A DNA stretch of 64,000 nt from Alphaproteobacteria bacterium (GCA_013316395.1 WSMU01000001.1:2393-66392), one strand, 5' to 3'; shown: positions 15,001 through 62,438, numbered from the stretch's first letter. Notes: generated by a model from the sequence alone, not told the origin. Numbers and translations: made by a program.

Positions 15001-15152
15001 GACAACGTGGCGTTGGATTTGAACCGTGCGACGAAAGTCGCCAGTTCGAAAACAAGTAGGCGAGACAAGCGACCGCACCGTCGAGCCGTTACGGTTTCCC
15101 CGCAGGCGCATCGCGACGAGGGAATCAGCCACTCCCACCAAAATAAAAATGC

Positions 15153-15180
15153 CGGTTTTTACCGGCGTTTTTATTTTATT
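15153..15180. terminator. Hairpin terminator, probably bidirectional
   Basis: GCCGGT-TTTTA-CCGGC followed by GTTTTTATTTTATT. It lies at the 3' end of the minus-strand lipoprotein gene. Confidence 0.5.
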
Positions 15181-15544: not shown

Positions 15545-15556
15545 TTATTATCTCTT

Positions 15557-24401: not shown

Positions 24402-24413
24402 AAAGGTGCATAT

Positions 24414-26437: not shown

Positions 26438-26445
26438 ATTCCGAC

Positions 26446-28130: not shown

Positions 28131-28202
28131 TTGTATTCCTATTTATTTAATATATGTATATAATAAACGTAAAGTCCCACTTTTTCAATATAGGAGTGTA
28201 GA

Positions 28203-29414
28203 TTGCAGTGTGATATTTATACCAGCGATAAATATAAAAAATATTTCCATAGCGATATCGCCGCGCGTCAAATATGTGGTGCGCCTTTTGATGATAGTGC
28301 GCTGGATATAGACTGCATAGATTCCGGGTTGGTCGCGGTCGATTGTGCGACGGGGGCCTTTGGAATATTTGACGTTGATAACAAATTTGTGAAATCTTCG
28401 CTGCAACTGCGCGGCAAAATGGGGCAATTTATCCCGGATGTAAAAAAACTGTGTGTGGAAAACTGTGCTGATACGGCCATATTCTTAGGCAATATATATC
28501 CGCATTTTGGACATTTTTTGCTGGAACATTTAAATCGCGCATGGGGGCTGGGGCGCGTATATAAAAAGGGAATGAAGGTAATCTTTATTGATAATAAAAA
28601 CATCGGGGCCCAAAAGTTTGTTTTCGACTTTACCGATATGCTAAATATTCCAAGACGTGATGTTGTTATATTAACCAAGTCTGTGCGGTATAAGAAAGTC
28701 TATATACCGGCCCAATCTTGGGTAACCCAGCATCGTGCGCATACAGACTTTTGCAAGGCGTTTGACGCTATGGGCGCGGGTGTTTCGGGGCCGGGTGTCG
28801 GCGACAAGGTATATGTTTCGCGTGCCGCATTACCCGCCGATATGAAGGTGTTTGGTGAGGAGCGGATTCAAAATATATTCAAAAAAAATGGATATGCGAT
28901 AATTTATCCTGAAAAGATGCCACTGGCACATCAAGTGGCGGCTATAAAGAATGCCAAAGTTTTGGCGGGGTGCGGGGGGACTGCACTGCATTTGGCGCTG
29001 TTTATGAAACCGGGCGGGCGCGTAGTGCAGATAAAAAGAAATACAGGGATAAAGGATAATGGCCCGATACAGTGGATGCTGAACCAGGTGCGCGGTTTGA
29101 ATAGTGTGTTTATAGAGGCGTCGGTTGAAAAGCGCAAGTCAGAGCATCAGTCCAAGCTGCCTCAAATAATAGGCGTAACAGAACACTTGCAACGCTTTTT
29201 CGATGACAACGGATTTAAGTATTCGGCTCGTGATGTGGAACAAGACAAAGCGGCGTTTGCCGAATATGAAATTGCGCTGGCCGCGGCCAGCGCCGCCCAT
29301 GGCGGCGCAATATATATGCGTTTAAAGCGTTTTATAATCAAGTTTGTGACATGCTTTGTACCCGGTCGCGTACGGCGCGGGCGTGTTCGCGCATGGCTAA
29401 AGGAAAGGCTGTAA
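28203..29414 (+). CDS. DUF563/GT61-like glycosyltransferase
   Basis: FGHFLLEHLNRAWGL is the hallmark motif of the DUF563 capsular glycosyltransferases. Confidence 0.55.
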   Translation: MQCDIYTSDKYKKYFHSDIAARQICGAPFDDSALDIDCIDSGLVAVDCATGAFGIFDVDNKFVKSSLQLRGKMGQFIPDVKKLCVENCADTAIFLGNIYPHFGHFLLEHLNRAWGLGRVYKKGMKVIFIDNKNIGAQKFVFDFTDMLNIPRRDVVILTKSVRYKKVYIPAQSWVTQHRAHTDFCKAFDAMGAGVSGPGVGDKVYVSRAALPADMKVFGEERIQNIFKKNGYAIIYPEKMPLAHQVAAIKNAKVLAGCGGTALHLALFMKPGGRVVQIKRNTGIKDNGPIQWMLNQVRGLNSVFIEASVEKRKSEHQSKLPQIIGVTEHLQRFFDDNGFKYSARDVEQDKAAFAEYEIALAAASAAHGGAIYMRLKRFIIKFVTCFVPGRVRRGRVRAWLKERL

Positions 29415-35376: not shown

Positions 35377-35880
35377 CTACTTTTTGCCAAAGTGTTTCTT
35401 TAAAATTTCGTAAGCATCGGCGATTTTTGTAAATTCTGTCGCCGCGTTTTTAATGTTATGTGCCGTGTCGGGGTGATATTTTTTTGCCAGCACGCGGTAT
35501 TTTGCACCAACATCACGCCATGTTGCCGCCGGGGTCAGGTCAAATACCCGCAGGGCAGAAACAACCGGCCCCGGTGTTTTTGAAGGTGCCGGCCGGCGGT
35601 CAAATTCCGAGCGACCGTTAATAAAATCGTTTATGAATTTTACATAATCTGATGCATCCTGGTTGGCGCTTTGCTTGTCGCGCAGTGGGGCGCCAAATGT
35701 CTGGCGTTCCCAGTCATCCTCGATTTCGTCCGCCGTCATGTTTGCGTAAAAGTTCCAGTTTTTGTTATATTCGGCGGCGTGTTCGCGGCAAAAGAACCAG
35801 TATTCTTTTAAATCGCGCGATTTGGGTGCGCGACAGGTCCCGGCCTTGGTACAGCCCGTGTGTTCGCATTTCTTTATCAT
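35377..35880 (-). CDS. J-domain protein with an N-terminal Cys cluster
   Basis: C-terminal J-domain (AKKYHPDTAHN...ADAYEILKK, HPD present). N-terminal CEHTGCTKAGTCRAP...FCREH is a putative zinc-binding cluster. Confidence 0.6.
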   Translation of the reverse strand: MIKKCEHTGCTKAGTCRAPKSRDLKEYWFFCREHAAEYNKNWNFYANMTADEIEDDWERQTFGAPLRDKQSANQDASDYVKFINDFINGRSEFDRRPAPSKTPGPVVSALRVFDLTPAATWRDVGAKYRVLAKKYHPDTAHNIKNAATEFTKIADAYEILKKHFGKK

Positions 35881-36746
35881 ATTTTCTTATCCAAATTTTG
35901 ACCGCCCAGCGGGTGGCATGTTTTTACCGTTTCAATCAAATTATCCGGCATTACGTGTGTATATATCTGGGTTGTTGCAATATCTTCGTGGCCCAGCATT
36001 GTTTGTATCGCGCGCAGGTTGGCGCCACCCGCCAACAGATGCGAGGCAAACGAATGGCGCAGTACGTGCGGACTGACCCGGTCGGGTGATATGCCCGATA
36101 GTACGGCGCATTTTTTCAATATTTTAAACAGCCCGTCGCGTGTTATATGGCCGGCCGTACTGTTGGATGGGAATACAAATTTTGAATCCGTATCACCGCG
36201 GATATTTAGCCATTTTGATAACGCATCCTGGGCGCCATCGTGCATGGGAACGATGCGTTCCTTGGCGCCTTTGCCATGTATCAGCAGGCGGCCGGGCAAT
36301 ATTGCAGATACCTGCAGCGTGCACAGTTCCGACACGCGCAGACCAGATGCATAAAGCAGTTCTATAATCGCGCGCAGGCGCGTTGCATTCCGCGTATCCC
36401 CCGCCGACGATATCAGCAGTTCTATCTCTTGCTGGGTCAGCAGCTTTGGCAGCAGCTTTTCCCGCTTTGGCAGTTCTAAATCAGCCGCTGGATTTTTTTT
36501 GATAATTTTTTCCAGCATCAGGAATTTATAGTAGCCGCGCAGGGCGCTGGCCTTGCGCGATATGGTGGATGCCTTGTCAGGCAGTGTGGATAGATAGGCC
36601 GTTAAATCAGCGTTACTGGCGCCCATTAGGCCGGCGGGCAGCGCGGCATCGGCCGCGCGCAAATCAGATGCGTATGCCCCCAGGGTATTTGTGGTGCGCC
36701 CGCGTTCCGCGGCCAGGGCCTCCAAAAACGGCTCTATATAATTCAT
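35877..36746 (-). CDS. xerD: Tyrosine recombinase XerD (XerC/D family)
   Basis: RHSFASHLL and GHEDIATTQIYTHV catalytic motifs; 289 aa. Confidence 0.85.
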   Translation of the reverse strand: MNYIEPFLEALAAERGRTTNTLGAYASDLRAADAALPAGLMGASNADLTAYLSTLPDKASTISRKASALRGYYKFLMLEKIIKKNPAADLELPKREKLLPKLLTQQEIELLISSAGDTRNATRLRAIIELLYASGLRVSELCTLQVSAILPGRLLIHGKGAKERIVPMHDGAQDALSKWLNIRGDTDSKFVFPSNSTAGHITRDGLFKILKKCAVLSGISPDRVSPHVLRHSFASHLLAGGANLRAIQTMLGHEDIATTQIYTHVMPDNLIETVKTCHPLGGQNLDKKI

Positions 36747-45457: not shown

Positions 45458-47722
45458 ATGGATACGCAATCAAAATTTTTGCCGGCCAGTGTTTCTGGCG
45501 CATTGAAAAGTTTAGCCTTTCGTGCGGCGGGGGCTGCTATTTTAGTTTTGGGAATATGGATGTCTGGGGCCTTGATTTTCCACAATCCGTATCTGGACGG
45601 TTTTGCCACGGCCAGTACAATGGGGCGTCAAAGCATTATGGGAAATCTGGTCGGTGTTGTGCGATATCTGATAGGTTTTGTTCCAGCATTATTTGTTTTT
45701 TTATGTGTTGCGCGGCGGGGGCTGGTAATGCTGACCGGGGCGCGTGATGAAAATGCGCCTGAATATAATTTTATGCGCGGCTTTATAGCGGTATGCCTGG
45801 GGGCGGCCGGTTTCGGAATGATTATGCCGGGCGGTACTTTTGGGGGTATGGCCGGGGCCGTGGCGGCATCAGATGTGGCATCGCTGGTTGGGGCGTGGGC
45901 TGTCTTGCCTGGTATTTTATGTGTCGGTCTGTTCTTTGTGCTGGGGGCTATGGTATTGCATATAAAGTGGGCACATGTTCGGTCGGTTATAAATATTTTA
46001 TGGCGTTCTCTGATGTGGCTGATGTCTGTTTTTCATCTGACACGTGCGCCTTATGCGGCGCCATCTGACGCAGATGAGCAAGAGGGGGCGGAACAGGAGG
46101 AGGCAGATGTCGAAGATGATGAAGAAGAGGTTGAGATAGACGCGCCCGTTGCGCGGAAGCGTACGCGTGCAATTCGGCGCCGTGCGGCCCCCGCTGCCAC
46201 ACGCAGCGCGCCCGATGCGTCAGAGTACTGTTTCCCAGACCCTGAGTTTTTGGAAAAATCAGCGTTTGGTAAAAATGTTGTAACGCCAGAGCTGAAACGT
46301 AATGCTGCGTCCCTTGAAGACCATTTTGAAGAATTTGGCGTATATGGCAAGGTTGCCGGAATAAAGCCGGGGCCAATTGTAACCCTGTATGAGTTTGAAC
46401 CTGATACCGGCATGCGCATTGCAAAAATTACCGAAACGGTAAAGGATATGACGCGCGCCATGGCGACGGAAAATATTCGCATTGCACATATTCCACGTAC
46501 AAACTATATCGGTGTGGAAATGGTTAATCTGACCACGCAAATGGTTCGCTATAGAGGTTTGATAGAAAATCCGACGTTTGTAAATTCTAAGTATAAAATA
46601 CCGCTGGCGCTGGGTGTGGATATTGGTGGCAATCCTATGTATTACGACCTGGCAAAGATGCCGCATATGATGATTGCGGGGCGTACAGGTTCGGGTAAGT
46701 CAGTATTTGTTCAGTCTATTATAACGTCTATCGTTTATCATTTTTCGCCTGATAAATGCAAGCTGATTATTATCGACCCAAAGGGTGTTGATTTCGGATT
46801 CTGGGATGATATTCCGCACTTGATAACGCCGATTGTAAAGCTGGACCCGTCGGCGGCTGTTAATGCACTGAAATGGGCTGTCCGCGAGATGGAGGAGCGC
46901 TATAAGCAGTTACAGGTGCTAAATGCCCGTAATATAGAGAGCTATAATGAAACCGCGGCGCAAAAGCGTGCATCGGGCGAGAAGATAACGCGCCAGGTTG
47001 CCGTTGGAACGGACGAGGAAACAGGCGAGCTGCTGTTCGAAACGCAGGAAATAGATTTGTCCGATATGCCCTATATCGTGATTATCATAGACGAGGTGGC
47101 GGACCTGATGAGTTTGGCCCGCAAGGAGGTTGAGGCATGCGTTCAGCGTATCGCACAGAAGGCACGTGCGGCCGGAATTCATCTGGTTATGGCGACGCAG
47201 CGTCCCGATGCCACAACAATTACCGGTGTTATTAAGGCGAACTTTCCGACGCGTGTATCGTTTCAGGCGCGCAGTAACATCGACTCGCGTACTACGTTGG
47301 GCGAGGGCGGGGCGGAAAACCTGCTGGCGTGTGGGGATATGTTGTTTAGTGAGGCCGGCCGCGTTCCTGTGCGAATACACGGCGCCTTTATCTCTGATAA
47401 TGAGTTGTCGCAGATTGGGGACTTTCTGCGCAGCCAGGGGGCGCCGGAATATGCCTCTGGTGTTACCGATGGTGACGAGGCGGAGGATGCGTCCGCCGCG
47501 GCCCCGGCCGGTGGCGGCGCGGCCGCGTCCAAAGGGGACAAGGATGCGGATTTGTATACCCAGGCAAAGGAATGCGTTCTGCGCGATAAAAAGCCAACAA
47601 TTTCATATATTCAGCGCCGACTACAGATTGGCTATAACAAGGCGGCGACATTTATGGAGCGTATGGAGGCCGATGGAATCGTCAGTGCGCCCGATGCAAA
47701 CAACAAGCGTCATATATTATAA
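45458..47722 (+). CDS. ftsK: DNA translocase FtsK
   Basis: N-terminal TM domain, acidic linker, motor domain (GRTGSGKSV; MATQRPD) and C-terminal gamma (winged-helix) domain. Confidence 0.9.
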   Translation: MDTQSKFLPASVSGALKSLAFRAAGAAILVLGIWMSGALIFHNPYLDGFATASTMGRQSIMGNLVGVVRYLIGFVPALFVFLCVARRGLVMLTGARDENAPEYNFMRGFIAVCLGAAGFGMIMPGGTFGGMAGAVAASDVASLVGAWAVLPGILCVGLFFVLGAMVLHIKWAHVRSVINILWRSLMWLMSVFHLTRAPYAAPSDADEQEGAEQEEADVEDDEEEVEIDAPVARKRTRAIRRRAAPAATRSAPDASEYCFPDPEFLEKSAFGKNVVTPELKRNAASLEDHFEEFGVYGKVAGIKPGPIVTLYEFEPDTGMRIAKITETVKDMTRAMATENIRIAHIPRTNYIGVEMVNLTTQMVRYRGLIENPTFVNSKYKIPLALGVDIGGNPMYYDLAKMPHMMIAGRTGSGKSVFVQSIITSIVYHFSPDKCKLIIIDPKGVDFGFWDDIPHLITPIVKLDPSAAVNALKWAVREMEERYKQLQVLNARNIESYNETAAQKRASGEKITRQVAVGTDEETGELLFETQEIDLSDMPYIVIIIDEVADLMSLARKEVEACVQRIAQKARAAGIHLVMATQRPDATTITGVIKANFPTRVSFQARSNIDSRTTLGEGGAENLLACGDMLFSEAGRVPVRIHGAFISDNELSQIGDFLRSQGAPEYASGVTDGDEAEDASAAAPAGGGAAASKGDKDADLYTQAKECVLRDKKPTISYIQRRLQIGYNKAATFMERMEADGIVSAPDANNKRHIL

Positions 47723-47769: not shown

Positions 47770-47890
47770 ATACTTTTACCAATACGTGTTGCAACATAAA
47801 CTAAGAAAGGTCGGACAATGTCAGTGTTTTTTATGCTTTTTTATCGACTGTGATTATGGTATAATTTATCCCAAAAGGAGAACTTTTATT

Positions 47891-49132
47891 ATGAAAAAGC
47901 AGATGTCTTTATTTATATGGGCGGCGGCTGTTTTTGGCATGGCGCCTGTTTGGGCGGCGACAAACGTCGGTATGCGCGCCGCGTCCAGTGCGGATTTATC
48001 CGGTGCGCCGGCCGTACGTGCACGCGGGAATGTTAACTATGAAAAGTATGAAACACGTTCAACAACGCGTACTTATGATGTTAAGGACGGGGCGGACCTT
48101 TATTATACACAGCCCGCCAGCCGCAGCGCGCTGTATAAGCAGTATGATAATTCGGCACGTCGCACGGGCAGTGCTACTACAACGCGTAATGTTCGCACCA
48201 CACGTGCGGAGACGGTTCGTCGCGAGTTGAAACGTAAATATTATCTGGCGCATCCGTTTTTCCAGCCGCTGAAGGGCAAGTTTGGTTCGATTACGGATAT
48301 TGCATATGATATGAATTCGTATGACATGACACTGACCCCGGCCGATGGCATGACGATATCCGATACACGTGCAAAGTGGGATATGAAATCATTCTCGGTC
48401 AAAGAAGACTTTAGTTATGGTATTACGGACCGCTTGGCGGTACTGGCCATGGCGAAATATAATTCGACCAAATATAAGTTCGACTGGTCTACTGCGCCGG
48501 ACGACAAAATGGATGATGACGGTTTTAACTTGTACGGTCTGGGTGCCCAGTGGCGCTTTATTGACAATGAACAGTGGATTGGAACATTGTCCGGTTATTT
48601 CCAGCATCAGAAGGATATCGCCAATAGCTATATCTTGGATTTGAAGGGTGGGTATAAGATTGCACGCTCTACAATCTATGGATTGGCACGCGGTTGGTAT
48701 GTTGATTTTGAAGGTAACTCGTACGGTAACGGAATAGAGGGTACAACTGCCGAAGGGCAAAAGGCGGCAATCTTTATCGCGTATGATACCGATGTAGATA
48801 ATACTTTCTATATAGAAGGCGGCTTGGGCGTATTTAGCGTTCTTGATGAAGACTGGACGTTGAATCTGGAGGCTGTGTTCGGCAACTATGATTGGCATAA
48901 CCAGGCATCTATAAAGGGTGCAATCGGTTGGCAGCCCAATGATTGGGTCGCGCTTAACCTGTATGCAAAGACCGCGTTCTATGACAGTGCCGATGATAAA
49001 AAGCTGGGCTACTGGTCTTATGGCGCAGTTGGCGAAGATGGGAACCAACTGGGCTGGATGAAGCATGGCGAGGCAAAGCTGTCCGACTATAAGGAAACAT
49101 CGTTCGGGCTGCAGGCGATATTCCAGTTCTAA
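47891..49132 (+). CDS. Outer-membrane beta-barrel protein (hypothetical)
   Basis: Signal peptide MKKQMSLFIWAAAVFGMAPVWA, alternating amphipathic strands, C-terminal F (AIFQF). Confidence 0.5.
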   Translation: MKKQMSLFIWAAAVFGMAPVWAATNVGMRAASSADLSGAPAVRARGNVNYEKYETRSTTRTYDVKDGADLYYTQPASRSALYKQYDNSARRTGSATTTRNVRTTRAETVRRELKRKYYLAHPFFQPLKGKFGSITDIAYDMNSYDMTLTPADGMTISDTRAKWDMKSFSVKEDFSYGITDRLAVLAMAKYNSTKYKFDWSTAPDDKMDDDGFNLYGLGAQWRFIDNEQWIGTLSGYFQHQKDIANSYILDLKGGYKIARSTIYGLARGWYVDFEGNSYGNGIEGTTAEGQKAAIFIAYDTDVDNTFYIEGGLGVFSVLDEDWTLNLEAVFGNYDWHNQASIKGAIGWQPNDWVALNLYAKTAFYDSADDKKLGYWSYGAVGEDGNQLGWMKHGEAKLSDYKETSFGLQAIFQF

Positions 49133-49211: not shown

Positions 49212-49934
49212 ATGTTTTATAAAAAGATTATTGTTGCATTTTTATGTTTGACCGCCGGTGTTTGTTCCGCATCACATGCGGGCGCATTGGAATTTGATAC
49301 GTCTGACCCGCTCTATATGCAGGGAACCGGGGAAATTTTATCAACATCTAATATTACATATTATGACAGCGTACTGCGTATCGGTCAGGCATTGTCATAC
49401 GGTTTTAGCGAGCGGTTTACCGCCGGTGTTAATCTGCATTACCAAAATGATTTTGCGGGCGACGAGGACGGATTTTCCAGCTTTGACCTGGGTGGTGTTT
49501 ATCGTCTGATGACCCCGGCTGAGAATAATCATCACATAATATCAGATGTTTTGTTCGGATTTAAATTTGGTGGCTCGTCCCATGTGCGAACACCATGGTT
49601 CGCAGATTCCACATATTATGCCGGCTTGCGCTTTGGGCGTCAGTGGGCGGGCGTAACCCTGGCCGGTACTATAAAGTCCAGCTGGATTTTCGATGATGAC
49701 CGCGGGATGTCTTATATAGACTTTATCCCAGAGGCGTATTTTAGATTGCGTGGCGCATGGCGTGCCGGAATAGGGGCGGATTTCCGCAAGGCTACGAATC
49801 CCGATTACGACCAGGAATGGATAAACGCCAAATTGGTGCGTCAATACGGACGGACGCAGTACATAGGGCATATAGATTATGAATTCGAAGGCGATGAATT
49901 TCAAATCGGGGTCAAACTGAATATCTTGTTTTAA
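49212..49934 (+). CDS. Small outer-membrane beta-barrel protein (hypothetical)
   Basis: Signal peptide with AHA cleavage site; C-terminal aromatic residue (NILF). Confidence 0.5.
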   Translation: MFYKKIIVAFLCLTAGVCSASHAGALEFDTSDPLYMQGTGEILSTSNITYYDSVLRIGQALSYGFSERFTAGVNLHYQNDFAGDEDGFSSFDLGGVYRLMTPAENNHHIISDVLFGFKFGGSSHVRTPWFADSTYYAGLRFGRQWAGVTLAGTIKSSWIFDDDRGMSYIDFIPEAYFRLRGAWRAGIGADFRKATNPDYDQEWINAKLVRQYGRTQYIGHIDYEFEGDEFQIGVKLNILF

Positions 49935-52432: not shown

Positions 52433-52455
52433 AACCGGGAATTTCCCGGTTTTTT
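52433..52455. terminator. Bidirectional terminator
   Basis: ACCGGGAA-TTTCCCGGT perfect palindrome, flanked by A- and T-runs. Confidence 0.7.
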
Positions 52456-53155
52456 ATCCTGTGATTTTGGCCATAAATGCGTTATGGGTCGCGCGTTCCT
52501 GGGGTGGGGCCGGGAATTCACGACGGGGAAAGTTCGCCCCGATTTTAGGATGGTTTAGCATTGCCTGGTGCTGCTGGGCGATTATTTCGGATATATCCGG
52601 TGCCGGCGCCGTGTTTTCCAGTTCCAGGTAAACCTTTGCTAAAATTTCAGAGTCGATTAAAGCCCCGTGTGCGTCTGCACGTGCCGTCAGTGATATGCCA
52701 TACCATTTTGCCAGTGCATCCAATGTAAAAAGTTTTGGGCCAAAAAGACGGTTGCGCGCCAGGACAAGTGAATCTATCTGCTGGCTGCGTGGAATCTGGG
52801 GCAGGCCAAGTTTTGCAAGCTCATGATTTACAAAAGGAAAGTCAAAGTCCTGGCCGTTGTGTGCAACAATAGGGGAATCGCCAACAAACTCCAAAAAGCG
52901 CGGCGCAATAACATTCATTTTGGGCTTGTCTTCTAGGAAGGCGTTTGAAATTTTATGAACCATATATGTTTCTGGGGGAATAATTTTTCCCTCCGGATTT
53001 ATGTATTCATGGAACGAGTTATCGGTTATAACGCCGTCAATGATTTCTACTGCACCGATTTCGATACATCTGTCGCCGCGCAGATATTCAAATCCGGTCG
53101 TTTCAATGTCAAAGCAAATAACGCGTTTCATCTTCCATTTCCCTTTGATAAGCAA
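52454..53155 (-). CDS. DnaQ-like 3'-5' exonuclease (DNA polymerase III epsilon family)
   Basis: Exo I CFDIETTG, Exo II and Exo III (HGALIDSEIL) motifs; 233 aa. Confidence 0.7.
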   Translation of the reverse strand: MLIKGKWKMKRVICFDIETTGFEYLRGDRCIEIGAVEIIDGVITDNSFHEYINPEGKIIPPETYMVHKISNAFLEDKPKMNVIAPRFLEFVGDSPIVAHNGQDFDFPFVNHELAKLGLPQIPRSQQIDSLVLARNRLFGPKLFTLDALAKWYGISLTARADAHGALIDSEILAKVYLELENTAPAPDISEIIAQQHQAMLNHPKIGANFPRREFPAPPQERATHNAFMAKITG

Positions 53156-53188
53156 ACTTTGGTGTATTATAATGTGTGCGTGAATTTA

Positions 53189-55267
53189 ATGCTAGAAAAT
53201 CTTAATGAAGACCAGCGGGCCGCTGTTACCACAACCCAGGGGCCGCTGTTGGTGCTGTCGGGGGCAGGAACAGGCAAGACGCGTGTGCTGACCACACGCA
53301 TTGCATATATTTTGGAACAAAACCTGGCGATGCCGTGGCAGGTGCTGGCCTTGACGTTTACTAATAAGGCCGCAAATGAGATGAAGGCACGAATTACGGC
53401 ATTTGGTACAGAGGGCGAGTTTAATGCGCGCGATCTGTGGTGCGGTACGTTTCATTCCGTTGCGTTGCGAATATTGCGGGCGAATGCCGATGCGGCCGGA
53501 TTGCGTCGTGATTTTATTGTCTTTGGGGATGACGACCAAAAGGCGGTGATAAAAAATATTCTGGCATCGCTGGGGATGTCTGTGAAAACGCCCGCCGACT
53601 ATGTGGACCAATTTTCGTCCGTAAAGGACCGCGGTCTGCGCGCGTTGGAGTATAAGGATAAGATTTTCGATGCATATAATGCCGAACTGGCCCGGTTAAA
53701 TGCCGTGGATTTCGGTGATATTATACTAAAGGTTTTGCAGTTATTTGACACAAACCCTGATATTTTGGCCCGCTATCAGAATCAGTTTAAATATATTTTA
53801 GTTGACGAGTTTCAGGATACAAATCATGCCCAGATGGAACTGCTGGAGATGTTAACACGCGGCCAGGAGGCGCCTAATATTTGCTGTGTCGGTGATGACG
53901 ACCAGTCTATTTATTCCTGGCGCGGGGCAGAGATAAAGCATATCTTGAATTTCGATAAGACTTTTCCGGCGGCGCGTGTTATTCGTCTGGAGATAAATTA
54001 TCGCAGTACGGCCAATATACTGGGGGCGGCAAATTCGCTTATACGACATAATCGCGGGCGACTGGGCAAGGATTTGCGCAGCGTGTCCGCCGAACATAAG
54101 GGCGAGCCTGTATATGTTTTAACTGTTCCATCCGATTGGGACGAGGCACGCGTTGTCGCGGATGCGGTGCTGCGCGATGCGGCGGACTTTGGAAAGTTTG
54201 CGGTGCTAATTCGCGCCGGTTCTTTATCGCGTTTGTTCGAAGAAGAATTTGCGCGCCGTGGAATTCCTTATCGCCTGATTGGTGCTACCAAGTTTTATGA
54301 CCGAACGGAAATACGTGATGCGATTGCATACATAAGACTTATGGCCTATCCATTCGACGATGTTTCTTTCCAGCGCATAATAGGGCGGCCGCGTCGCGGA
54401 TTTGGGGCGGCCGCGATTGAAAAGCTGCGTGAGGCGGGGCCGGATTTAATGTCGGGGCTTATTAACGCCAATCTGTCCGCAAAGCAGCGCTTGGCCGCAG
54501 ACGAGTTTTTGGCCGCGTTTGACTTTGACTGGGCCGCGATGGCGCCAGCTGATGCGGCGCAGACACTGCTGGAGCGGTCGGGATATTTGAAAATGTGGCG
54601 CGAATCCAAAGAGGCGGATGCATCTGATAGATTAGATAACCTGCGCGAGTTGATAACAAACGTTATTTCCAAATATGGCACCATTGCCGAATTTTTAGAG
54701 CAGGCCGCCCTGATGATGACAGACGATGATGCGGATGCGGCGGCACTGTCCGGGGGGGCGGTATGTATTATGACAATTCATGCCGCCAAGGGACTGGAAT
54801 TTGATACGGTATTTCTGCCCGCATGGGAAGAGGGGATTTTTCCCAATGAAAAGACCGTGGATGAGGGGGCGCTGGAAGAAGAGCGGCGTCTGGCCTATGT
54901 TGCGATAACGCGTGCGCGGTGTCGCGCGGTTATTATAAACACTATGTCACGGCGTCTGTTTGGGGAACAAAAATTTAATTCCCCCAGTCGCTTTATAGCA
55001 GAGATGGATAATCGCTTCTTGGATTTCCAGGGCGGGGCGCCGCGGCCGGCTTATTCGGCGACGCGTGGTATTCCGACATTGTATGAATCGCGACCGGTTC
55101 GGCGTGTGGCCCCTGCGCCAAAGGCCAATTCTGTGGGGCGTTTGGTATCTCATCCTGAGATGGGGCGCGGCGTCGTCATAGAAGATGCTGGTGATATTTT
55201 AACCGTTGCATTTAAAGAGCGCGGAATTAAAAAAGTTGCGCGGGGCTACCTGATGTTTGAATCCTGA
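53189..55267 (+). CDS. uvrD: UvrD/Rep-family DNA helicase
   Basis: Motif I AGAGTGKT, motif II DEFQDT, UvrD C-terminal Tudor-like domain. Start MLENLNEDQRAAV chosen; the ORF-track start at 52955 would overlap dnaQ. Confidence 0.85.
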   Translation: MLENLNEDQRAAVTTTQGPLLVLSGAGTGKTRVLTTRIAYILEQNLAMPWQVLALTFTNKAANEMKARITAFGTEGEFNARDLWCGTFHSVALRILRANADAAGLRRDFIVFGDDDQKAVIKNILASLGMSVKTPADYVDQFSSVKDRGLRALEYKDKIFDAYNAELARLNAVDFGDIILKVLQLFDTNPDILARYQNQFKYILVDEFQDTNHAQMELLEMLTRGQEAPNICCVGDDDQSIYSWRGAEIKHILNFDKTFPAARVIRLEINYRSTANILGAANSLIRHNRGRLGKDLRSVSAEHKGEPVYVLTVPSDWDEARVVADAVLRDAADFGKFAVLIRAGSLSRLFEEEFARRGIPYRLIGATKFYDRTEIRDAIAYIRLMAYPFDDVSFQRIIGRPRRGFGAAAIEKLREAGPDLMSGLINANLSAKQRLAADEFLAAFDFDWAAMAPADAAQTLLERSGYLKMWRESKEADASDRLDNLRELITNVISKYGTIAEFLEQAALMMTDDDADAAALSGGAVCIMTIHAAKGLEFDTVFLPAWEEGIFPNEKTVDEGALEEERRLAYVAITRARCRAVIINTMSRRLFGEQKFNSPSRFIAEMDNRFLDFQGGAPRPAYSATRGIPTLYESRPVRRVAPAPKANSVGRLVSHPEMGRGVVIEDAGDILTVAFKERGIKKVARGYLMFES

Positions 55268-55272
55268 TTTAA

Positions 55273-56574
55273 TCAGGATTTTTTACTGTCTTTATATAGC
55301 TTCCAGTATTTTTTCGACTGGTCACGAATGTTTTTAGCAAGCTTTGTTATGTCTTTGCCAAATTGCTGACCCAGGGAGTCATCAATACTGCCGCCCAGGT
55401 CTTTTGCAATTTTCATTGCCTTGTCCGCCAGATATGCAACCAGGCATCCGATAAGCAAGGTTATCATGAACCCTTCGTTGTCTATTGTCGGAACCTGGGC
55501 CGCCAGGTTGGTGTCAACAACACCGGACAATATCGCCGCGCACAACGCCACAACAATGGACAGCGATACAAAATAAATAGCCGCGTTTATAAAGCGTGTT
55601 ATTTGAGCCGACAGGTTTTCTGTTTTAAACAACCCTAAGAGTCCGTTGAATATTGTGCCGGCTATTCCGGTGTATGATGTTTTCCCGACTGTTTCCGCAA
55701 TCGCTGTAAACGGCAGCATAAATATCGCCAGGAATAAATCCGCAATAACACCCAATGCCATTAACGCAAATTTCCATATATTGATTAGGAATATTATTAT
55801 GAATGCGACACCTATAATAAATGTAAACATGCTGTGACCTATGCCGGCCAGCATCCATTTCCAGCCCGCCGCCACCGCGGTATAGAAAAATCCGGACAGG
55901 CGTGTCGGAACACACATAATGTCTGCGGCGGCATTGGCATCGATAATTGCATCGGGTGATATATGTGCCGCGGCATAGTCGCGTATTGCCGCACATGTGT
56001 CGGGCAGGGTGGCGCCCGCCGTTTGTGCCACGGCATTTAATATCAAATCAGACATATATGTACCGACAGTGATAATCGGACCCGCAACCAGCATAAATGT
56101 TTCGGCGGGACCGTATTCGATTACAAATACCCATATCGCGATTGTAAAACCTTTTTTAACAATGCCTTCGATTGTTTTTCTGACCTCGGCGGCGCCTATT
56201 ATCATTTGATATGCCTCGAACCCCATCCAGAACATAAAGGCTATGGCGATAAATATTGTTGCAAAACGCACCAGCGAACTGTCCAGAATACGGCCCAGAT
56301 ATGTCATCGCGTTGATAAACGCCAGACCTATCTTTGCCTCGACAGGGACATAGTTTTCGACCAACTGGTTTTGAAAGTCCGATTGAAAAAAGTCTATGTC
56401 CTGGGATAAGTCGGTTGTAAAAGATTCCAGATTATGCGGTGTAGTCCACGCGCCATAGTCGCTGATGTCCCCAGATGCGGAGGGAATATTTGTCGCCGCG
56501 CTTGCGCCGGGCAAAACAAGAATCACACCCAGCGCGCAGACAATAATTTTTGAAAATAGCTTTTTTACTAACAT
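55273..56574 (-). CDS. Polytopic membrane protein, VirB6/TrbL-like (paralogue 4 of 5)
   Basis: Signal peptide, periplasmic segment, at least 6 TM helices, Lys-rich C-terminal tail. One of a tandem array of similar proteins. Confidence 0.45.
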   Translation of the reverse strand: MLVKKLFSKIIVCALGVILVLPGASAATNIPSASGDISDYGAWTTPHNLESFTTDLSQDIDFFQSDFQNQLVENYVPVEAKIGLAFINAMTYLGRILDSSLVRFATIFIAIAFMFWMGFEAYQMIIGAAEVRKTIEGIVKKGFTIAIWVFVIEYGPAETFMLVAGPIITVGTYMSDLILNAVAQTAGATLPDTCAAIRDYAAAHISPDAIIDANAAADIMCVPTRLSGFFYTAVAAGWKWMLAGIGHSMFTFIIGVAFIIIFLINIWKFALMALGVIADLFLAIFMLPFTAIAETVGKTSYTGIAGTIFNGLLGLFKTENLSAQITRFINAAIYFVSLSIVVALCAAILSGVVDTNLAAQVPTIDNEGFMITLLIGCLVAYLADKAMKIAKDLGGSIDDSLGQQFGKDITKLAKNIRDQSKKYWKLYKDSKKS

Positions 56575-56585
56575 CTGGTCTCTTG

Positions 56586-58022
56586 TTATTTTTTGCCGAA
56601 AGACTTGGATAGTGCCCCGAATATCTGTGTTGGTGCGGACCAGATTTTCTTGCCTAAATCCTTGGTCCAGGCGCCAAAGTCGAATTCTTCTTTTGATGGC
56701 GCGGCCAGTATCTTGTTAACGCGCGGCGCCACAACATAATAATATAACAGGAACAAGCCTATCATTAGCATCAGGAAATCCCAGCCGTCCGACATAAAGT
56801 CAAATGCACCCGGATAGTGGCGTTCAACCTCGGCACGGCGTGCGGTAAAGCAGGCCTTGAAGCGGGCGGCATCCATTTCGCCATCGGCCAAGGCAACGCG
56901 TTCGCAGTCTGAAAATACGCGCATTACCGACAGTGTTTGGGCATCCGGGTTTTCAGGCGCCACCCCCAGCATCGGCGGCAGTATCGCACTGTAGCCATCG
57001 GCGGGGCCGGGGAAGAATTCATCGGCTGCGTATGATATGGTTGCATACAGGATAACTATTTTAAGTGTGATAGCGACTATTTGAATTGCAGATTTTACCA
57101 GCATATTGACTGCATTACCGGTAAGGCCCGATGCCAGTTTCCATGTCTTTTCAAATGCCGCGGCCGCTAATAAAAATGGCAGGAATATTATTAGGAACAC
57201 CAACTTGAACACGACAGAGAGCACCTGGAAGAATAGGTCAAAGCCGATTATTAAAAACATTAGCACCAGCGCCAGTCCCGCCAGCCATGTAAACAATCCG
57301 CCCCCCAGCCCCAGCCATGCATAGTTCATCAGCGCAAAACCGCCCGCCGCCCCGGCGAGCATTACACTATTTAAATTGCCCATAACACACATAAAGGGGC
57401 CCATAACAGGATTTAATATATCGTCAGAGTTTTCGGCCGTCTGTTCCAGTACGTGACACTGTGACGCCTCCGATGTGCCGGTGGCGGCCATAGACAGCTC
57501 GGCCCCGACAAACATTACCGGTGTTATTGTAATTGATGCGACTGTTTTTAGGGCCGCCGTGCCGCCCATTCCCAGCACGCCCATCATTGCGCCAACAATC
57601 ATAATTCGTGCGCCTTGGCGCCAGACTTTGTCGAACCATGATGTGAAGTCTAGCTTTTTTTCAGATGTATCCAGTGCGGTTGTTTTTTGCGCCGCGCCAT
57701 AGATATGCCTTATGGCTTCGATAAATAAAAATATGCCAAAGCCCACGGCCATAAGTATCCACAGCCATTGAACAATGGCATCCCAGAACATTTCCGTGGC
57801 ACGTCCGATGACGGCAAACAGGTCTGAGATATAGCCGCACATAAAGCACCCGGATGCATCGGCGATGTTATCCGATGCACCGATTGCCCCCATAAAGCCT
57901 TCCATGCTGGTATATGTCAGCGCGGCGCCCCCGATTGATGACGACAGATACCAAATACCAATCCCCAGGGCGACGGCACCCATTAAAAAACGTATGGCAA
58001 TCAAGATTAGTTGCGCTTTCAT
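56586..58022 (-). CDS. Polytopic membrane protein, VirB6/TrbL-like (paralogue 3)
   Basis: Same architecture as its neighbours. N-terminal CFMCGYISDLF motif shared with paralogues 2 and 5. Confidence 0.45.
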   Translation of the reverse strand: MKAQLILIAIRFLMGAVALGIGIWYLSSSIGGAALTYTSMEGFMGAIGASDNIADASGCFMCGYISDLFAVIGRATEMFWDAIVQWLWILMAVGFGIFLFIEAIRHIYGAAQKTTALDTSEKKLDFTSWFDKVWRQGARIMIVGAMMGVLGMGGTAALKTVASITITPVMFVGAELSMAATGTSEASQCHVLEQTAENSDDILNPVMGPFMCVMGNLNSVMLAGAAGGFALMNYAWLGLGGGLFTWLAGLALVLMFLIIGFDLFFQVLSVVFKLVFLIIFLPFLLAAAAFEKTWKLASGLTGNAVNMLVKSAIQIVAITLKIVILYATISYAADEFFPGPADGYSAILPPMLGVAPENPDAQTLSVMRVFSDCERVALADGEMDAARFKACFTARRAEVERHYPGAFDFMSDGWDFLMLMIGLFLLYYYVVAPRVNKILAAPSKEEFDFGAWTKDLGKKIWSAPTQIFGALSKSFGKK

Positions 58023-59218
58023 TTACCGTCCGATTTGCTGTCTTTTGTGTCGCCGCCGCTGATTACGATGCCACCGATTTTTTTCGCTGTTTGTGCAATC
58101 GCGGATGTCAGTTTCATTGCATCGTTTGCCAACTGTTCGCTAAGTTCGGTTTCCGTGCTGACTTCAAATGCCCCCAGAATCATTTTTGTAACCTGGGGTA
58201 TTTGGTCGTATATATAGTTTAGAACATACACCAGAACAATTGCCCCCCCCAGGGTCATCTGCGCCAGGTTATCCTGGCTAAGGTCTGATGCAAATACTTC
58301 GCCGTTTGTAATCAGCGTCATTAAATCCGCCGCTGATTCGCCCGGGGTTGAAAAGAACTTTGCGATAATTACCATTATAACGGTATATGTAATCACCGCC
58401 GCCGCCAGGCCGATAATGGCACCGATGACTTTTTTAAACTGTTCCGCGCCGACGTTTTTCCCCAGTGATGACAGCCACTTTGGCCCGTCTGCGCCCTTGA
58501 ATGCGACCAGTGTCAGCGACAGCGGAAACAAAAACGCAAAAAATGTCATGGCGACAATGATGTCGGCAAAGTAAAAACAGAAACGCACAAAGAGCTTAAA
58601 GAAGCCATAGAAAAGATAAAGCCCGATAGCAAATAGTATTATATGCTTTATAACCGCGCCAACCCCCAGCAGGGCGGACCATGAAAACGCGTTGTCCATT
58701 ATGGCGATGCCCAGCTTCATGTATGCCTGGAACTGTGTAATGGTTGTCTTCATAATATTGATGACAGTATCGCGCAGTTCGGGACGATAGAAGCCGTCAT
58801 CAGACATTGGCATCGGCTGGTAGGTAACACGTTCTGCGACGGTTTCTTCGTCTATTTGCAGCATGTTTTGCGTATATGCGGCGGTTATCTGGGCGACGGG
58901 TTCAAACGTTATTGTTGTAACAAACCGGGGCAGCATTACCCCCAGCGACAGAAATGCAAACGCCACCAGTGAATTGATTATAACCGGCTGAATAGATTTG
59001 GCATAAAACGGGTCGGTGCCGCCGCCTTTGATGTTTTTCCATACGGCGCTTATGGCAAAAAACGCAAACAGAACACAAAACAGCACCGCGCAAAACAAAA
59101 CGAATTTATCATAGACCGATGCGGCGGCGGCGGATATTACCTGGAACAGTCTGTCAAAGACAGGGCAGCCCCAGCACTGCACGCTATCTTCGATTAAAGG
59201 GTTTATCCATTGGTTCAT
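58019..59218 (-). CDS. Polytopic membrane protein, VirB6/TrbL-like (paralogue 2)
   Basis: CWGCPVFDRLF motif after the first hydrophobic segment; multiple TM helices; hydrophilic K/D/S-rich tail. Confidence 0.45.
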   Translation of the reverse strand: MNQWINPLIEDSVQCWGCPVFDRLFQVISAAAASVYDKFVLFCAVLFCVLFAFFAISAVWKNIKGGGTDPFYAKSIQPVIINSLVAFAFLSLGVMLPRFVTTITFEPVAQITAAYTQNMLQIDEETVAERVTYQPMPMSDDGFYRPELRDTVINIMKTTITQFQAYMKLGIAIMDNAFSWSALLGVGAVIKHIILFAIGLYLFYGFFKLFVRFCFYFADIIVAMTFFAFLFPLSLTLVAFKGADGPKWLSSLGKNVGAEQFKKVIGAIIGLAAAVITYTVIMVIIAKFFSTPGESAADLMTLITNGEVFASDLSQDNLAQMTLGGAIVLVYVLNYIYDQIPQVTKMILGAFEVSTETELSEQLANDAMKLTSAIAQTAKKIGGIVISGGDTKDSKSDGK

Positions 59219-60507
59219 TATTTTTTCTTTATCCAGCCGGCGGCCTTGCCGATTGATTTACCCCAGTTCTTTGCACCGGCCCATGTCTTTTTCGCATCGC
59301 CCGTCACACGGTTATATAGCGCATCAGACGCCGGTGCATACATCTTTAGCCGTTCGCGTGTTAAATCAAAAATCCGCAGCATCAGATAGAATGTCAAGAT
59401 AGCGGACATCCACATTACCGAGTGGCCGCCAAAGCCCATGTCGGTATTTGCCACGGTTGGGATGTTTGATGCCGCGCTGCCGCCGGCGGCGACAACAAAT
59501 ACCGAAGAGTTCCAGTTAAACAGCGCGCGCACGATTGCAACGTTAATGGTTAATATGAACGCGCATGCAATCATTGTTATAATTAGCGTCTGTAGCGCCT
59601 TGGTTATGCCGGAGAATGCGGGCCATATATCGAACCACTTGTCGGGATTCTTTGGCTTTGCGACCCAGGTCAGAACCTGAAACGGGTAGAGAATCAGTGC
59701 CATTCCGAATTCAAAAATCGCCTGAATAATCAGCAGCGCCATAAACAGGTTACAGCCGACGAATGTGGTTACCAGCAATATTCCAGATATTACGTTCATA
59801 AAGTCTTCGCCGCCGTGCGGTATCAGTGTAATCAGCCCGCGCAGTCCGCGATGAATAAATTCAAAGCCGCGTTTTATCATTTGGTTGTTTGTGTGGCTGA
59901 TGTCGGCAACAGGCTGGGTCAGGAATTCGCAACTGCGTTCTGATATCCAGCCGTGTTCAAGTATGTCGGGCGGGCAGGGAACCTGAGGGGCGGCGGATGC
60001 AACGATGCCGCCTGTATTTATTCCATCCGTAATGGCGCGGGTGTAAATTGCGCCGAATTCCAGAAACGGGTTAACCAGCCATTCTGTTACATATACCGGC
60101 TTTAACTGAAGCAGTACAACCGCGGCGATAATGGCGCGCATGCCGGGTTTTAGCATGTTTTGTGCGATTGTCATTGCATCGGCCTTTCCGGTAGCCATTT
60201 CCCCGCCGCCGGAAAATCCAAAGAACGACACCCACTTGGCCGGAAAGTACATTTTCACCAGGTATAGCGCCATTGATATTCCCAGGAACAGCCATACCAG
60301 CATGTATATAATACCGTTGCCGCGGCCGACAAAAAATTCATAGCCGCCGGTTGCAACCGTCATAAATGCGTCAAGTACCATTGGCACGAACGGTGCCAGG
60401 TTAAAGCTGTCCACGATGCCCCACGCGGCATGTGCAGACATTGGCGCAAACATGACGCATAATGCGGCCAGGGCGGGTAAAAATTTTTTAATCAGATGCA
60501 TAGACAT
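59218..60507 (-). CDS. Polytopic membrane protein, VirB6/TrbL-like (paralogue 1)
   Basis: Signal peptide (AAWG), multiple TM helices, Lys-rich tail. Its start codon overlaps the next gene's stop. Confidence 0.45.
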   Translation of the reverse strand: MSMHLIKKFLPALAALCVMFAPMSAHAAWGIVDSFNLAPFVPMVLDAFMTVATGGYEFFVGRGNGIIYMLVWLFLGISMALYLVKMYFPAKWVSFFGFSGGGEMATGKADAMTIAQNMLKPGMRAIIAAVVLLQLKPVYVTEWLVNPFLEFGAIYTRAITDGINTGGIVASAAPQVPCPPDILEHGWISERSCEFLTQPVADISHTNNQMIKRGFEFIHRGLRGLITLIPHGGEDFMNVISGILLVTTFVGCNLFMALLIIQAIFEFGMALILYPFQVLTWVAKPKNPDKWFDIWPAFSGITKALQTLIITMIACAFILTINVAIVRALFNWNSSVFVVAAGGSAASNIPTVANTDMGFGGHSVMWMSAILTFYLMLRIFDLTRERLKMYAPASDALYNRVTGDAKKTWAGAKNWGKSIGKAAGWIKKK

Positions 60508-60564
60508 ATATTTATTGTTTTCAATTATATCACATTTGGGGGAAAATGTGATATAGTTAAAGCA

Positions 60565-61860
60565 ATGGGGCGCCTAAAAAAATTTTGGATAGTGTTTTTG
60601 TCTTTCCTGCCGCTGTCGGCGGGTGCGGTGGCGCCGTTTGTTGTTGGTGGCATCGCGGGTGCGGTGGGAATTGTGGGCTTTTCCATATTTCGTACGGCCG
60701 CGCCGGTTAATATGTCGGATGCGCTTACGTTTTTCAGCAGTTGCTGGACATGCGACATGTTCGGCAGTGTTATGTCCACGATGTCTATATTATTGCCAAA
60801 GGCGTTTCATGCAATCGCGGGTGTGGTAATACCTTTTGCGGCGGTTTTAACAGCGGTTTGGTTTGCGTGGAAAATTTTTTCAGGATTTTTAAATGCCAAG
60901 ATTGACGACCCCTGGTCGATTACAGGCCTGTTTGGTACGCATCTTATAAAGCTTTGCTTTGTATGCGCGCTGCTGGCATTGCCGTTGCCGCGGTTGATAT
61001 CTCAAATCGCGATAGAGCCGATATTTACAGTTGGTCTGTCGGTAAATCATATTGCGGCGGATATGGCGGGTGAAAACAAATTTAACGAATGTGTTGTTGC
61101 GACCGCGCTGGCCGATGCCACGATTACCGATTCGCAGGCCGCCGATGCGGGCGCGTTTTCGCCAAATCTGCGTCATAATTTGGCGTGCGAGGTTGGAAAT
61201 GTTCACCAGATGACAGGTCTGGGGATGACGGTGGGTTGGACCATGATGAATATGGCCTTTAACGCCCAGTACATGCACAAGATTATGTGGGATGTTCCTA
61301 TTTTTCCAAATGTTCCGATATTCTTTTGCGGTTTGATGATAATAGTGCTGTTCTTTTTCGCACTGCTGCCGATTCCGATTTATTTCCTGGAGATATTTAT
61401 AAAGCTGTCGATGGATTTAATCATGCTGCCGCTGATGCTGCTGGGGTGGTTGTTTAAGGGCTGGCCGATATTCCCCCAGGGTGGGCGCACAATAAAAAGC
61501 ATGATAGATGATGTAGTCCAGGGTACAGTCGGTATCGCGATGACGGGTGTGTTTTTAACATTTGCGATAATGTTTTTAAATGCGGTATTTGGCAGTTGGA
61601 GTGGGGCGACGCGATTGGCGGCGGCGCTGCGTGAAAACGATTCGACGCTGCTGATGGATGGTCTGCTGATGCGTAACGACAGTATTGTTACAATAATCCT
61701 TATGGGAATTTTTATCGCGATGTTCATGACAATGATACCTGCACTGGTTAAGACGCTGTTTAATGTCCAGATATCGGATAAATATTACGAATCGACGAAA
61801 AAGAATTTAAATATAATGTGGGGAAATATGAAAAAATGGTACGCCGCGTTAAAAAAATAA
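60565..61860 (+). CDS. Polytopic membrane protein, VirB6/TrbL-like (paralogue 5, opposite strand)
   Basis: Signal peptide MGRLKKFWIVFLSFLPLSAGA, CWTCDMF motif, multiple TM helices, K-rich tail. Divergent from the other four. Confidence 0.45.
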   Translation: MGRLKKFWIVFLSFLPLSAGAVAPFVVGGIAGAVGIVGFSIFRTAAPVNMSDALTFFSSCWTCDMFGSVMSTMSILLPKAFHAIAGVVIPFAAVLTAVWFAWKIFSGFLNAKIDDPWSITGLFGTHLIKLCFVCALLALPLPRLISQIAIEPIFTVGLSVNHIAADMAGENKFNECVVATALADATITDSQAADAGAFSPNLRHNLACEVGNVHQMTGLGMTVGWTMMNMAFNAQYMHKIMWDVPIFPNVPIFFCGLMIIVLFFFALLPIPIYFLEIFIKLSMDLIMLPLMLLGWLFKGWPIFPQGGRTIKSMIDDVVQGTVGIAMTGVFLTFAIMFLNAVFGSWSGATRLAAALRENDSTLLMDGLLMRNDSIVTIILMGIFIAMFMTMIPALVKTLFNVQISDKYYESTKKNLNIMWGNMKKWYAALKK

Positions 61861-61928: not shown

Positions 61929-62438
61929 ATGAAAAAGTTTCCGATTCTTTACTGGCCCCGAAACACAAAGGGTGACGAAGAATATCGCCTGGCGCGTAAG
62001 GTGATTAGCAATGCGACCGGCGTTATGCCCCGGCTGTGGGCCGAAGACCTGGATTTGGGTCGTATATTTTCGGAAAATCCGGATGCGGCGGTTTATTATC
62101 CCGTATTTTGTGAAAGCACGGGCTGGTGGGGCGAGCTGCTGGGGGGTGATGCGGTTGTTACGGACAAGGTTATTATTTCCCCGGAATGTCAGCTAATGGT
62201 GATAGAGGCCGCGCATCATGCACGCAGTCGCGGCGGGACGCAGCTGCTGGCGGCAGAGATATATCCGGCCAGCGGCTTTTTCAAGAAGATGAACAGCGGC
62301 ATCGCCACGGTGGCGGACATGCTGGCGACGGATACGGGAACAATACTGGCACTGTTTTCAGGGAAAAGTTCCGCGTCATTTATAAATGTATTGGAATCGA
62401 CGGGTAATTCGTATCTGGGGTGCATTGGGCGATACTAG
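61929..62438 (+). CDS. Hypothetical protein
   Basis: 169-aa ORF with no confident family assignment. Confidence 0.4.
   Translation: MKKFPILYWPRNTKGDEEYRLARKVISNATGVMPRLWAEDLDLGRIFSENPDAAVYYPVFCESTGWWGELLGGDAVVTDKVIISPECQLMVIEAAHHARSRGGTQLLAAEIYPASGFFKKMNSGIATVADMLATDTGTILALFSGKSSASFINVLESTGNSYLGCIGRY

Follow-up and report, generated by a model that had tools for sequence, protein, structure and literature searches.

A block of five consecutive genes at positions 55273–61860 of a chromosomal stretch from Candidatus Enterousia, an uncultured gut alphaproteobacterium, encodes membrane proteins whose sequence relationships and predicted structures support their assignment to the VirB6/TrbL fold family. 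The stretch that was analyzed (GCA_013316395.1 WSMU01000001.1:2393-66392; 64,000 nucleotides) is referred to as the window, and the five open reading frames (ORFs) as A to E. Of the core subunits of type IV secretion systems (T4SSs), VirB6 is understood least; it has lately been shown to assemble into a central pentamer, and whether this pentamer opens into a channel is debated. The block is a core five-gene module, and its products probably form a hetero-pentameric VirB6-type platform, an interpretation that is held here with moderate confidence.

The five paralogues and their relation to VirB6/TrbL

The five ORFs that an earlier note on this DNA had described, four on the minus strand and one on the plus strand, were all recovered at the same positions and with the same lengths. 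Paralogue D (59218–60507, minus strand) opens a D-C-B-A operon and has 429 residues, or 427 if the second methionine is the start. It is followed by the ORF calls of C (58019–59218, minus strand, 399 residues), B (56586–58022, minus strand, 478 residues), which is the best-conserved member, and A (55273–56574, minus strand, 433 residues), the end gene. Paralogue E is divergent from D. Its longest ORF spans positions 60496–61860 on the plus strand and has 454 residues; however, the true start is most likely M24 at position 60565, giving a protein of 431 residues (60565–61860), because orthologues are conserved from this residue onward and this length is given by two of four public gene calls (454, 431, 410, and 431 residues).

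The proteins share an organization that consists of an N-terminal segment predicted to be periplasmic, a set of hydrophobic helices, and a basic tail at the C-terminus. Each protein contains four to nine strongly hydrophobic segments of 19 residues, and 6–10 lysines and arginines are present among the last 40 residues. Contrary to the common architecture proposed in the earlier note, C lacks a signal peptide or transmembrane (TM) helix ahead of its CxxC motif. D has a signal peptide, and that of A looks cleavable. The three N-terminal cysteine motifs previously noticed are present as quoted, and their cysteines are invariant across orthologues. They are formed by C59/C62 of B (residues 59–69, CFMCGYISDLF), C15/C18 at the extreme N-terminus of C (residues 15–25, CWGCPVFDRLF, with the pattern C-W-G-C-x-x-F-D-R-L-F invariant among orthologues), and C83/C86 of E (residues 83–89, CWTCDMF, numbered according to the 454-residue ORF). 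A and D do not contain the motif. A second cysteine pair is positioned in the central loop of B (C189/C212, unchanged throughout the extended B family), E (C199/C231, same numbering), and A (C194/C221, conserved); D contains a conserved loop pair of its own, C178/C193. The N-terminal periplasmic CxxC and the central-loop cysteine pair are the hallmarks of the subfamily, as judged from the alignments. This combination is not known to have been described for VirB6 proteins.

The paralogy of the five proteins is real, as had been claimed, though ancient. Only the pairs A–B (23.5% identity over 234 residues) and C–E (22.5% over 249 residues) are detectable by BLASTP. Comparison of narrow profiles, each built from about 75–80 orthologues, links C with E (96.5%), A with D (94.1%), A with E (87%), and A with B (79%), and leaves B–D and C–D unlinked. 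All five proteins are connected by profile–profile comparison to a broadened B-family alignment (A2), which includes distant members retrieved from 1.84 billion representative proteins. In hhalign, C aligns to A2 at 99.6% (E 1.5e-23, 285 columns) with the CxxC in register, and E at 99.5% (E 3.6e-23) with both the CxxC and the loop cysteines in register. A aligns at 99.2% (E 6.9e-20, 347 columns), and its C194/C221 are opposite C189/C212 of B, whereas C178/C193 of D align only approximately (96.7%, E 4.5e-10). The four alignments are collinear over 249–347 columns. The collinearity and the cysteine columns in register indicate that A–E, although very divergent, are ancient paralogues.

None of the five proteins reaches the gathering threshold of PF04610 (TrbL/VirB6), which is 25.9 bits. 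The earlier note had taken the lack of a significant match to this profile as sufficient to discard the T4SS interpretation. Used alone, this criterion is too strict, because the B profile and the family alignments tie all five proteins, and the fold models two of them, to VirB6. The region of B that matches PF04610 (residues 217–334) corresponds to profile positions 75–189, the conserved TrbL core. Just 82 of the 1.84 billion representatives are retrieved as relatives by the B profile. They include P0173 (E 8e-15) and P0166 (E 1e-17), both of which are part of A2 and pass PF04610 with 35.7 and 27.6 bits, respectively. TrbL matches are present in 6 of 25 members of the extended family, two of them passing and four weak, and share the region of positions ~75–189. 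In comparisons with 48,164 PDB chains, TrwI/VirB6 ranks first for the predicted models of both B and D, well separated from the next unrelated chain, showing a VirB6 fold for these two proteins at the level of structure prediction; the Foldseek E-values are weak (0.19). An orthologue of D is named ‘TrbL/VirB6 plasmid conjugal transfer protein’ in UniRef. In the orthologue alignments, invariant tryptophans shortly precede the core helix, namely W240 of A, W236 and W246 of B, and W248 of E; none is aligned in D. An essential invariant tryptophan in the core region of transmembrane segment and cytoplasmic part is a feature of A. tumefaciens VirB6, and the array residues are no more than candidate equivalents of it.

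Other searches did not extend these links. Among orthologues of the four remaining paralogues, PF04610 has no match at E ≤ 0.1 (A 0/27, C 0/27, D 0/26, E 0/26; 0/106 altogether), and an NCBIfam scan of the five proteins returned nothing. The profile of the extended B family compared with PDB sequences gave no match to TrwI and only a spurious one at E 6.9. The evidence supports that all five proteins belong to the VirB6/TrbL fold family as a divergent, CxxC-marked subfamily. Their earlier description as VirB6/TrbL-like is therefore retained as remote homology for all five and as a predicted fold for B and D, but not as membership by the Pfam profile.

The array proteins resemble VirB6/TrbL proteins such as TrwI of plasmid R388 (PDB 7O3V, 8RT9, 8RTD) in the matching region, which is the TrbL core, and in the succession of predicted periplasmic N-terminus, hydrophobic helices, and basic C-terminal tail. 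In contrast, they all score below the Pfam threshold, carry the CxxC and loop cysteine pair, and are encoded by five fixed paralogues rather than one gene. The array also lacks neighboring VirB2, B3, B4, B5, and B8–11 genes, and is placed in a housekeeping chromosomal setting as part of the lineage core.

Conservation and control of the module

The comparison set consisted of 84 related Enterousia loci, 80 of which are from GTDB species representatives. Each of the genes A–E was found in 81–84 of the loci, A in all 84, with protein identities of 44–100%. Including W, the gene of a 169-residue neighbor of E, the order and orientation W- E- | D+ C+ B+ A+ are identical in 78 of the 84 loci, and the others end at contig edges. 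The values of ω, the ratio of nonsynonymous to synonymous substitution rates (Nei–Gojobori), are 0.04–0.16 over the five genes and 0.05–0.16 for A; they are rough because the synonymous divergence (dS) is near saturation. The guanine-plus-cytosine (GC) content of the array, 0.47–0.50, is the same as that of the rest of the window. Since the gene order is kept over about 80 species, the GC content is native, and ω is low, the block is core, vertically inherited, and under strong purifying selection, and not the most accessory-looking part of the window, as the earlier note had it.

The commonest spacing at all three D-C-B-A junctions is a stop/start overlap of -4 or -1 nt, and in 52 loci 4 nt are shared by the end of C and the beginning of B. 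The predominance of overlaps marks D-C-B-A as an operon with translational coupling. A hairpin with a 10-bp stem (55259–55281; a consensus match only) is located between the convergent stops of uvrD and A, and is a possible bidirectional terminator closing the operon.

A perfect palindrome with 12-nt arms, TATATCACATTT-N6-AAATGTGATATA (60526–60555), is located in the 58-bp intergenic region that separates D from E. A consensus scan identifies two overlapping divergent promoter matches, one per strand. Each palindrome arm comprises the extended -10 element (TGnTATAAT or TGnTATAGT) of one promoter and a -35-like hexamer of the other. The palindrome occurs once in the window, where the number expected by chance is 0. 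It is present in 60 of the 84 Enterousia loci, once per locus and always at the E|D junction, including species in which B is 62–65% identical. The palindrome is probably the shared control region of E and D-C-B-A, and possibly an operator for a dimeric factor. Because this intergenic element is so well conserved, selection is likely to act on the co-regulation of E with D-C-B-A.

Related arrays and genomic surroundings

The closest arrangement outside Enterousia is that of locus L096 (GC 0.47), in which E-D-C-B-A are all co-directional and one-to-one orthologous to the window proteins (E 1e-63 to 1e-88). The distribution of CxxC motifs is the same as in the window, with the motif present in E, C, and B, and absent from D and A. 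The gene upstream of E encodes an acyltransferase. Because L096 keeps E co-directional upstream of D, the ancestral state is a single E-D-C-B-A operon, from which the inverted E was derived in Enterousia. The inverted copy is thus a local change and does not signal scrambling.

Loci L086 (GC 0.57) and L093 (GC 0.27) are much more distant. Each contains five co-directional, larger paralogues of 474–843 residues, all with the CxxC motif, and the two arrays are orthologous position by position with 28–32% identity. The profiles of D, B, and A from the window reach positions 1, 4, and 5 of both arrays, and that of C reaches position 3 of L093 only; the best matches of the A profile are the position 5 proteins of the out-lineage arrays. 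Locus L091 contains four paralogues and a fifth that is cut by the contig end. The one-to-one orthology of the paralogues spans lineages with GC contents from 21 to 58%, and the orthologous positions show the number of five to be old and fixed. A few genes downstream of the L091 array is a homologue (12473–13693, 29% identical, E 1.7e-56) of a 443-residue ORF of the window (9935–11266, plus strand), which has no Pfam match and is positioned upstream of a lolC/lolD-like ABC transporter.

L086 and L093 have additional genes in common: one for a protein of 85–95 residues with two TM helices directly upstream of the array, and a divergent pair encoding proteins of 207/181 and 327/325 residues. These genes have no homologue in the window or in any Enterousia locus, match no T4SS family in NCBIfam, and the 85–95-residue protein does not match VirB3. 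The divergent accessory operon of L093 also encodes a YrhA-family protein (861–1274, minus strand; NF038335, 46.9 bits, with the cutoff of 55 not reached). Proteins of the YrhA type are often immunity proteins of polymorphic toxin systems.

Relatives also occur on megaplasmids of Sphingomonadales (Erythrobacter aureus, WP_115418074.1; Sphingosinicella, WP_129392706.1). They contain a CW-x-C motif and the core, match the A2 profile with 57.5 bits, have a small two-TM ORF upstream, as in L086 and L093, and, like the window array, are followed by a convergent UvrD-like helicase gene; VirB4 is not among the adjacent genes. Unlike the array genes, they are present in a single copy on large plasmids of free-living bacteria, with DNA-metabolism neighbors. 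In the PGAP annotation, the protein of Erythrobacter is called a ‘type IV secretion system protein’. The Sphingosinicella megaplasmid is typed by MOB-suite as mobilizable only, that is, with no mating-pair-formation system detected. Neither 72,556 plasmids nor 50,697 phages gave a tblastn match to B, and a search of P0173 against the plasmids gave one weak match, which led to the Erythrobacter gene. Among the 82 relatives found by the B profile, every one with examined context belongs to the same kind of array, and no T4SS gene is near.

The Sphingomonadales genes are part of a syntenic mini-module, located at 10640–12651 of the Erythrobacter aureus plasmid NZ_CP031358.1 (L090) and at 12720–16215 of Sphingosinicella p1 NZ_CP035502.1 (L097). 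It consists of two small ORFs, one with two TM helices, followed by the single CxxC-type VirB6-like gene; a gene for an SLT transglycosylase is nearby in Sphingosinicella. The megaplasmids are 350–410 kb long and rich in genes for ribonucleotide reductase (RNR), ligase, RNase HII, primase, topoisomerase, and single-stranded DNA-binding protein (SSB). In the window (52955–55267, plus strand), L090 (12804–14948), and L097 (16296–18416), the VirB6-like gene is directly followed by a convergent gene for a UvrD-family helicase, and L086 has a gene for an AddA-like UvrD/PDDEXK protein (17249–20443) about 4 kb downstream. The recurring UvrD neighbor may be coincidental.

The flanks of the array in the window are as the earlier note described them, with a dnaQ-like exonuclease gene and uvrD on one side, and the 169-residue ORF without a Pfam match on the other. 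The dnaQ-like gene (52454–53155, minus strand) is overlapped by about 200 nt by the longest uvrD ORF (770 residues). The overlap is a longest-ORF artefact, because public calls give a UvrD of 692 residues with the real start downstream. W (61929–62438, plus strand) encodes a soluble protein, matches no Pfam or NCBIfam family, and is co-directional with E, 68 bp downstream of it. It was found in 78 loci with identities of 69–100%, and is not beside the array in L096 and L095. W is a conserved neighbor limited to Enterousia, and the module probably does not require it.

The remainder of the window is ordinary chromosome, including aspS, uvrB, ftsA/Q, lolCD-like genes, recA, glycosyltransferase genes, typA, serS, trxB, a xerD-like gene, lptFG, greA, mutL, secDF, a ctpA-like gene, a PAP2 gene, and ftsK. 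Family scans of the 64 kb detected no VirB3, B4, B8, B9, B10, B11, or D4, relaxase, or coupling-protein families, in agreement with the absence of T4SS core genes reported before. No T4SS core gene is located within ±10 kb in Enterousia or out-lineage loci, where no VirB5-like gene was seen either. FtsK (45458–47722) was rejected as a coupling protein because it has the complete housekeeping architecture of alpha and gamma domains. Two ORFs, X (47786–49132, plus strand, 448 residues) and Y (49212–49934, plus strand, 240 residues), encode proteins that have a signal peptide, an alternating sequence pattern like that of beta-strands, and phenylalanine as the last residue; they resemble outer-membrane beta-barrels and have no Pfam match. 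X and Y appear to be fast-evolving or strain-specific, since only 8 of the 84 related loci have them. Six genes at 23484–29414 (Caps_synth, two GT2, GT2_4, RgpF-like, and GT61-like) encode glycosyltransferases and polysaccharide-synthesis proteins, which indicates a putative surface polysaccharide locus within an otherwise strongly reduced genome.

Enterousia belongs to the GTDB order Rs-D84, has a genome of about 1 Mb or less, and is sometimes labeled Rickettsiales by NCBI. Genomes of Rs-D84 are smaller than 1 Mb and have no standard uptake transporters, obligate dependence on a partner has been inferred, and many hypothetical membrane proteins were remarked upon (PMC12306168). The word ‘secretion’ occurs 0 times in that metabolic reconstruction (PMC12306168), and a literature search on Rs-D84 and Enterousia found no statement about a T4SS.

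A putative hetero-pentameric platform and its alternatives

The VirB6 of R388 (TrwI) forms a central pentamer beneath the VirB5 pentamer, with two N-proximal helices in the inner membrane and the bulk of the protein in the periplasm, and DotA forms a pentameric protochannel with IcmX (PMC12857230). By analogy with the TrwI/VirB6 homopentamer and the DotA pentamer, A–E probably form a hetero-pentameric platform or protochannel that would be anchored in the inner membrane and reach into the periplasm. Each assembly would contain one copy of every paralogue, which implies comparable levels of the five proteins. Such a one-of-each hetero-oligomer is suggested because the paralogues are non-redundant, each has its own orthologues, their expression appears coupled, and two have a predicted TrwI fold. 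The number of genes equals the number of subunits in the known VirB6 pentamer. Disulfides formed by the CxxC and loop cysteines could stabilize the periplasmic part, which is plausible because the conserved cysteines are located in segments predicted to be periplasmic. The platform may serve for contact-dependent exchange with a partner cell, a reasonable function since the organism depends on external metabolites. Legionella DotA (type IVB, PDB 9NGY) differs from the array proteins in its length of 857+ residues and in acting with IcmX within a full Dot/Icm locus, and no sequence similarity between DotA and the array proteins was detected.

Several observations weigh against the hetero-pentameric platform. 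Against PF04610, B scores 16.1 bits (E 0.0099), which is below the threshold, and A, C, D, and E have no match. The fold prediction covers B and D only, and the model of D is of moderate confidence, with a predicted local distance difference test (pLDDT) score of 63. No VirB4, VirB5, VirB8–11, or VirD4 partner is encoded in the window or in any flank. E is a separate transcription unit, so that equal dosage is not assured. The agreement between the number of genes and the number of subunits could be coincidental, as Anaplasmataceae and Wolbachia have four copies of VirB6.

Possible, though less than likely, is a scattered T4SS of the Rickettsiales (rvh-like) type, of which the array would be the VirB6 islet and A–E the inner-membrane and stalk subunits, with VirB3, VirB4, VirB8–11, and VirD4 encoded by further islets of the ~0.9-Mb genome. 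There is a precedent in Rickettsia (PMC2653234), where the T4SS genes are spread over five islets and VirB6 exists as five highly diverged paralogues. Both the rvh and Enterousia arrays consist of four or five tandem, extremely divergent VirB6 paralogues, descend vertically in alphaproteobacteria with reduced genomes, and have a duplication without an explained purpose; the role of the four or five copies in Rickettsiales, four in the case of Wolbachia, is unresolved and has been called ‘a mystery’. The NCBI label of the host, the size of the inspected portion of the genome (~70 kb), and the fact that all known VirB6 proteins act within T4SSs (PMC12857230) also agree with this explanation. However, the Rickettsia array directly follows virB3-virB4a in islet A, and RvhB6a–e, which have 674–1154 residues, all match PF04610 (PMC2653234). 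In none of about 90 loci from at least five lineages is the array preceded by virB3-virB4a; upstream of D in Enterousia are the inverted E, then W and rpmE. RvhB6 proteins are ‘extended’ by large hydrophilic flanks, whereas the array proteins have 399–478 residues, and the array has one inverted gene and a palindromic shared promoter. Among those of the 82 B-profile matches whose context was examined, none is in a virB4-linked array, and the contexts contain no T4SS genes; the searches made here gave no sequence-level link to RvhB6. The silence of the Rs-D84 reconstruction on secretion also counts against a scattered T4SS. Position, size, and PF04610 set the array apart from the rvhB6 set, membership in which is not supported, and the displaced or rearranged rvhB6-like cluster suggested in the earlier note is not borne out.

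Another tentative explanation is a T4SS-independent complex that reuses the VirB6 fold in a genome without any VirB4-type ATPase. Candidate functions are a nutrient or lipid uptake channel or scaffold, envelope biogenesis, and cell–cell attachment. The missing standard transporters and the many hypothetical membrane proteins of Rs-D84 (PMC12306168) are in line with such a complex. So are the lack of T4SS genes around the module in every lineage, the L086 and L093 accessory genes, which match no T4SS family, and the mobilizable-only megaplasmid that carries the single-copy relative in Sphingosinicella. However, we know of no VirB6-fold protein that acts without VirB4. The review PMC12857230 contains no such precedent, the absence of T4SS genes is established locally, and the automatic annotations by PGAP and UniRef name relatives as T4SS proteins. 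Both a scattered T4SS and a T4SS-independent complex are compatible with the hetero-oligomer model. Very improbable is that the five are unrelated polytopic membrane proteins with a compositional likeness caused by their hydrophobic helices. The mostly non-significant pairwise BLASTP results, the poor B–D and C–D narrow-profile comparisons, and the weak Foldseek E-value are what such proteins would give, but this explanation is largely refuted by the collinear hhalign alignments (E 4.5e-10 to 1.5e-23 over 249–347 columns), the cysteine columns in register, the one-to-one orthologues in other lineages, and the two independent models that put TrwI first with a clear gap. There is next to no probability that the block is what remains of a decaying T4SS from a plasmid or an integrated conjugative element. 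Conjugative elements typically carry TrbL/VirB6 genes, and a tyrosine recombinase gene (35877–36746) is located about 20 kb away. Nevertheless, conservation and selection refute a remnant: the chromosomal position and order are the same in about 80 species, all five genes have low ω, and the GC content is native. Furthermore, no relaxase, coupling protein, VirB4, repeats, or integrase is present at the borders, and the plasmid and phage collections contain no match to B.

The hetero-pentameric platform can be extended to a more speculative and rather unlikely proposal, an undescribed envelope machine in which five obligatory VirB6-fold paralogues form a channel or platform with periplasmic disulfides and no VirB4-type T4SS core. 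Such a machine would be a core survival system of partner-dependent gut Alphaproteobacteria of Rs-D84 and related lineages. What is new is a divergent, CxxC-marked VirB6 subfamily that is fixed as a five-paralogue core operon without neighboring T4SS genes. If the genome is truly without VirB4, the module would be the first example of a VirB6-fold system that is not tied to a T4SS. Candidatus Enterousia is widespread in the human and animal gut, and its genome of less than 1 Mb encodes no obvious nutrient importers, which makes a VirB6-type apparatus a candidate for exploiting a partner cell; in epibiotic Patescibacteria, a T4SS is essential. The module is also a compact natural form of the Rickettsiales VirB6-paralogue puzzle, with exactly five short paralogues of 350–480 residues. 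The rickettsial proteins of ~1000 residues make the idea of a hetero-pentamer hard to test, whereas it would be directly testable with the short proteins of this family.

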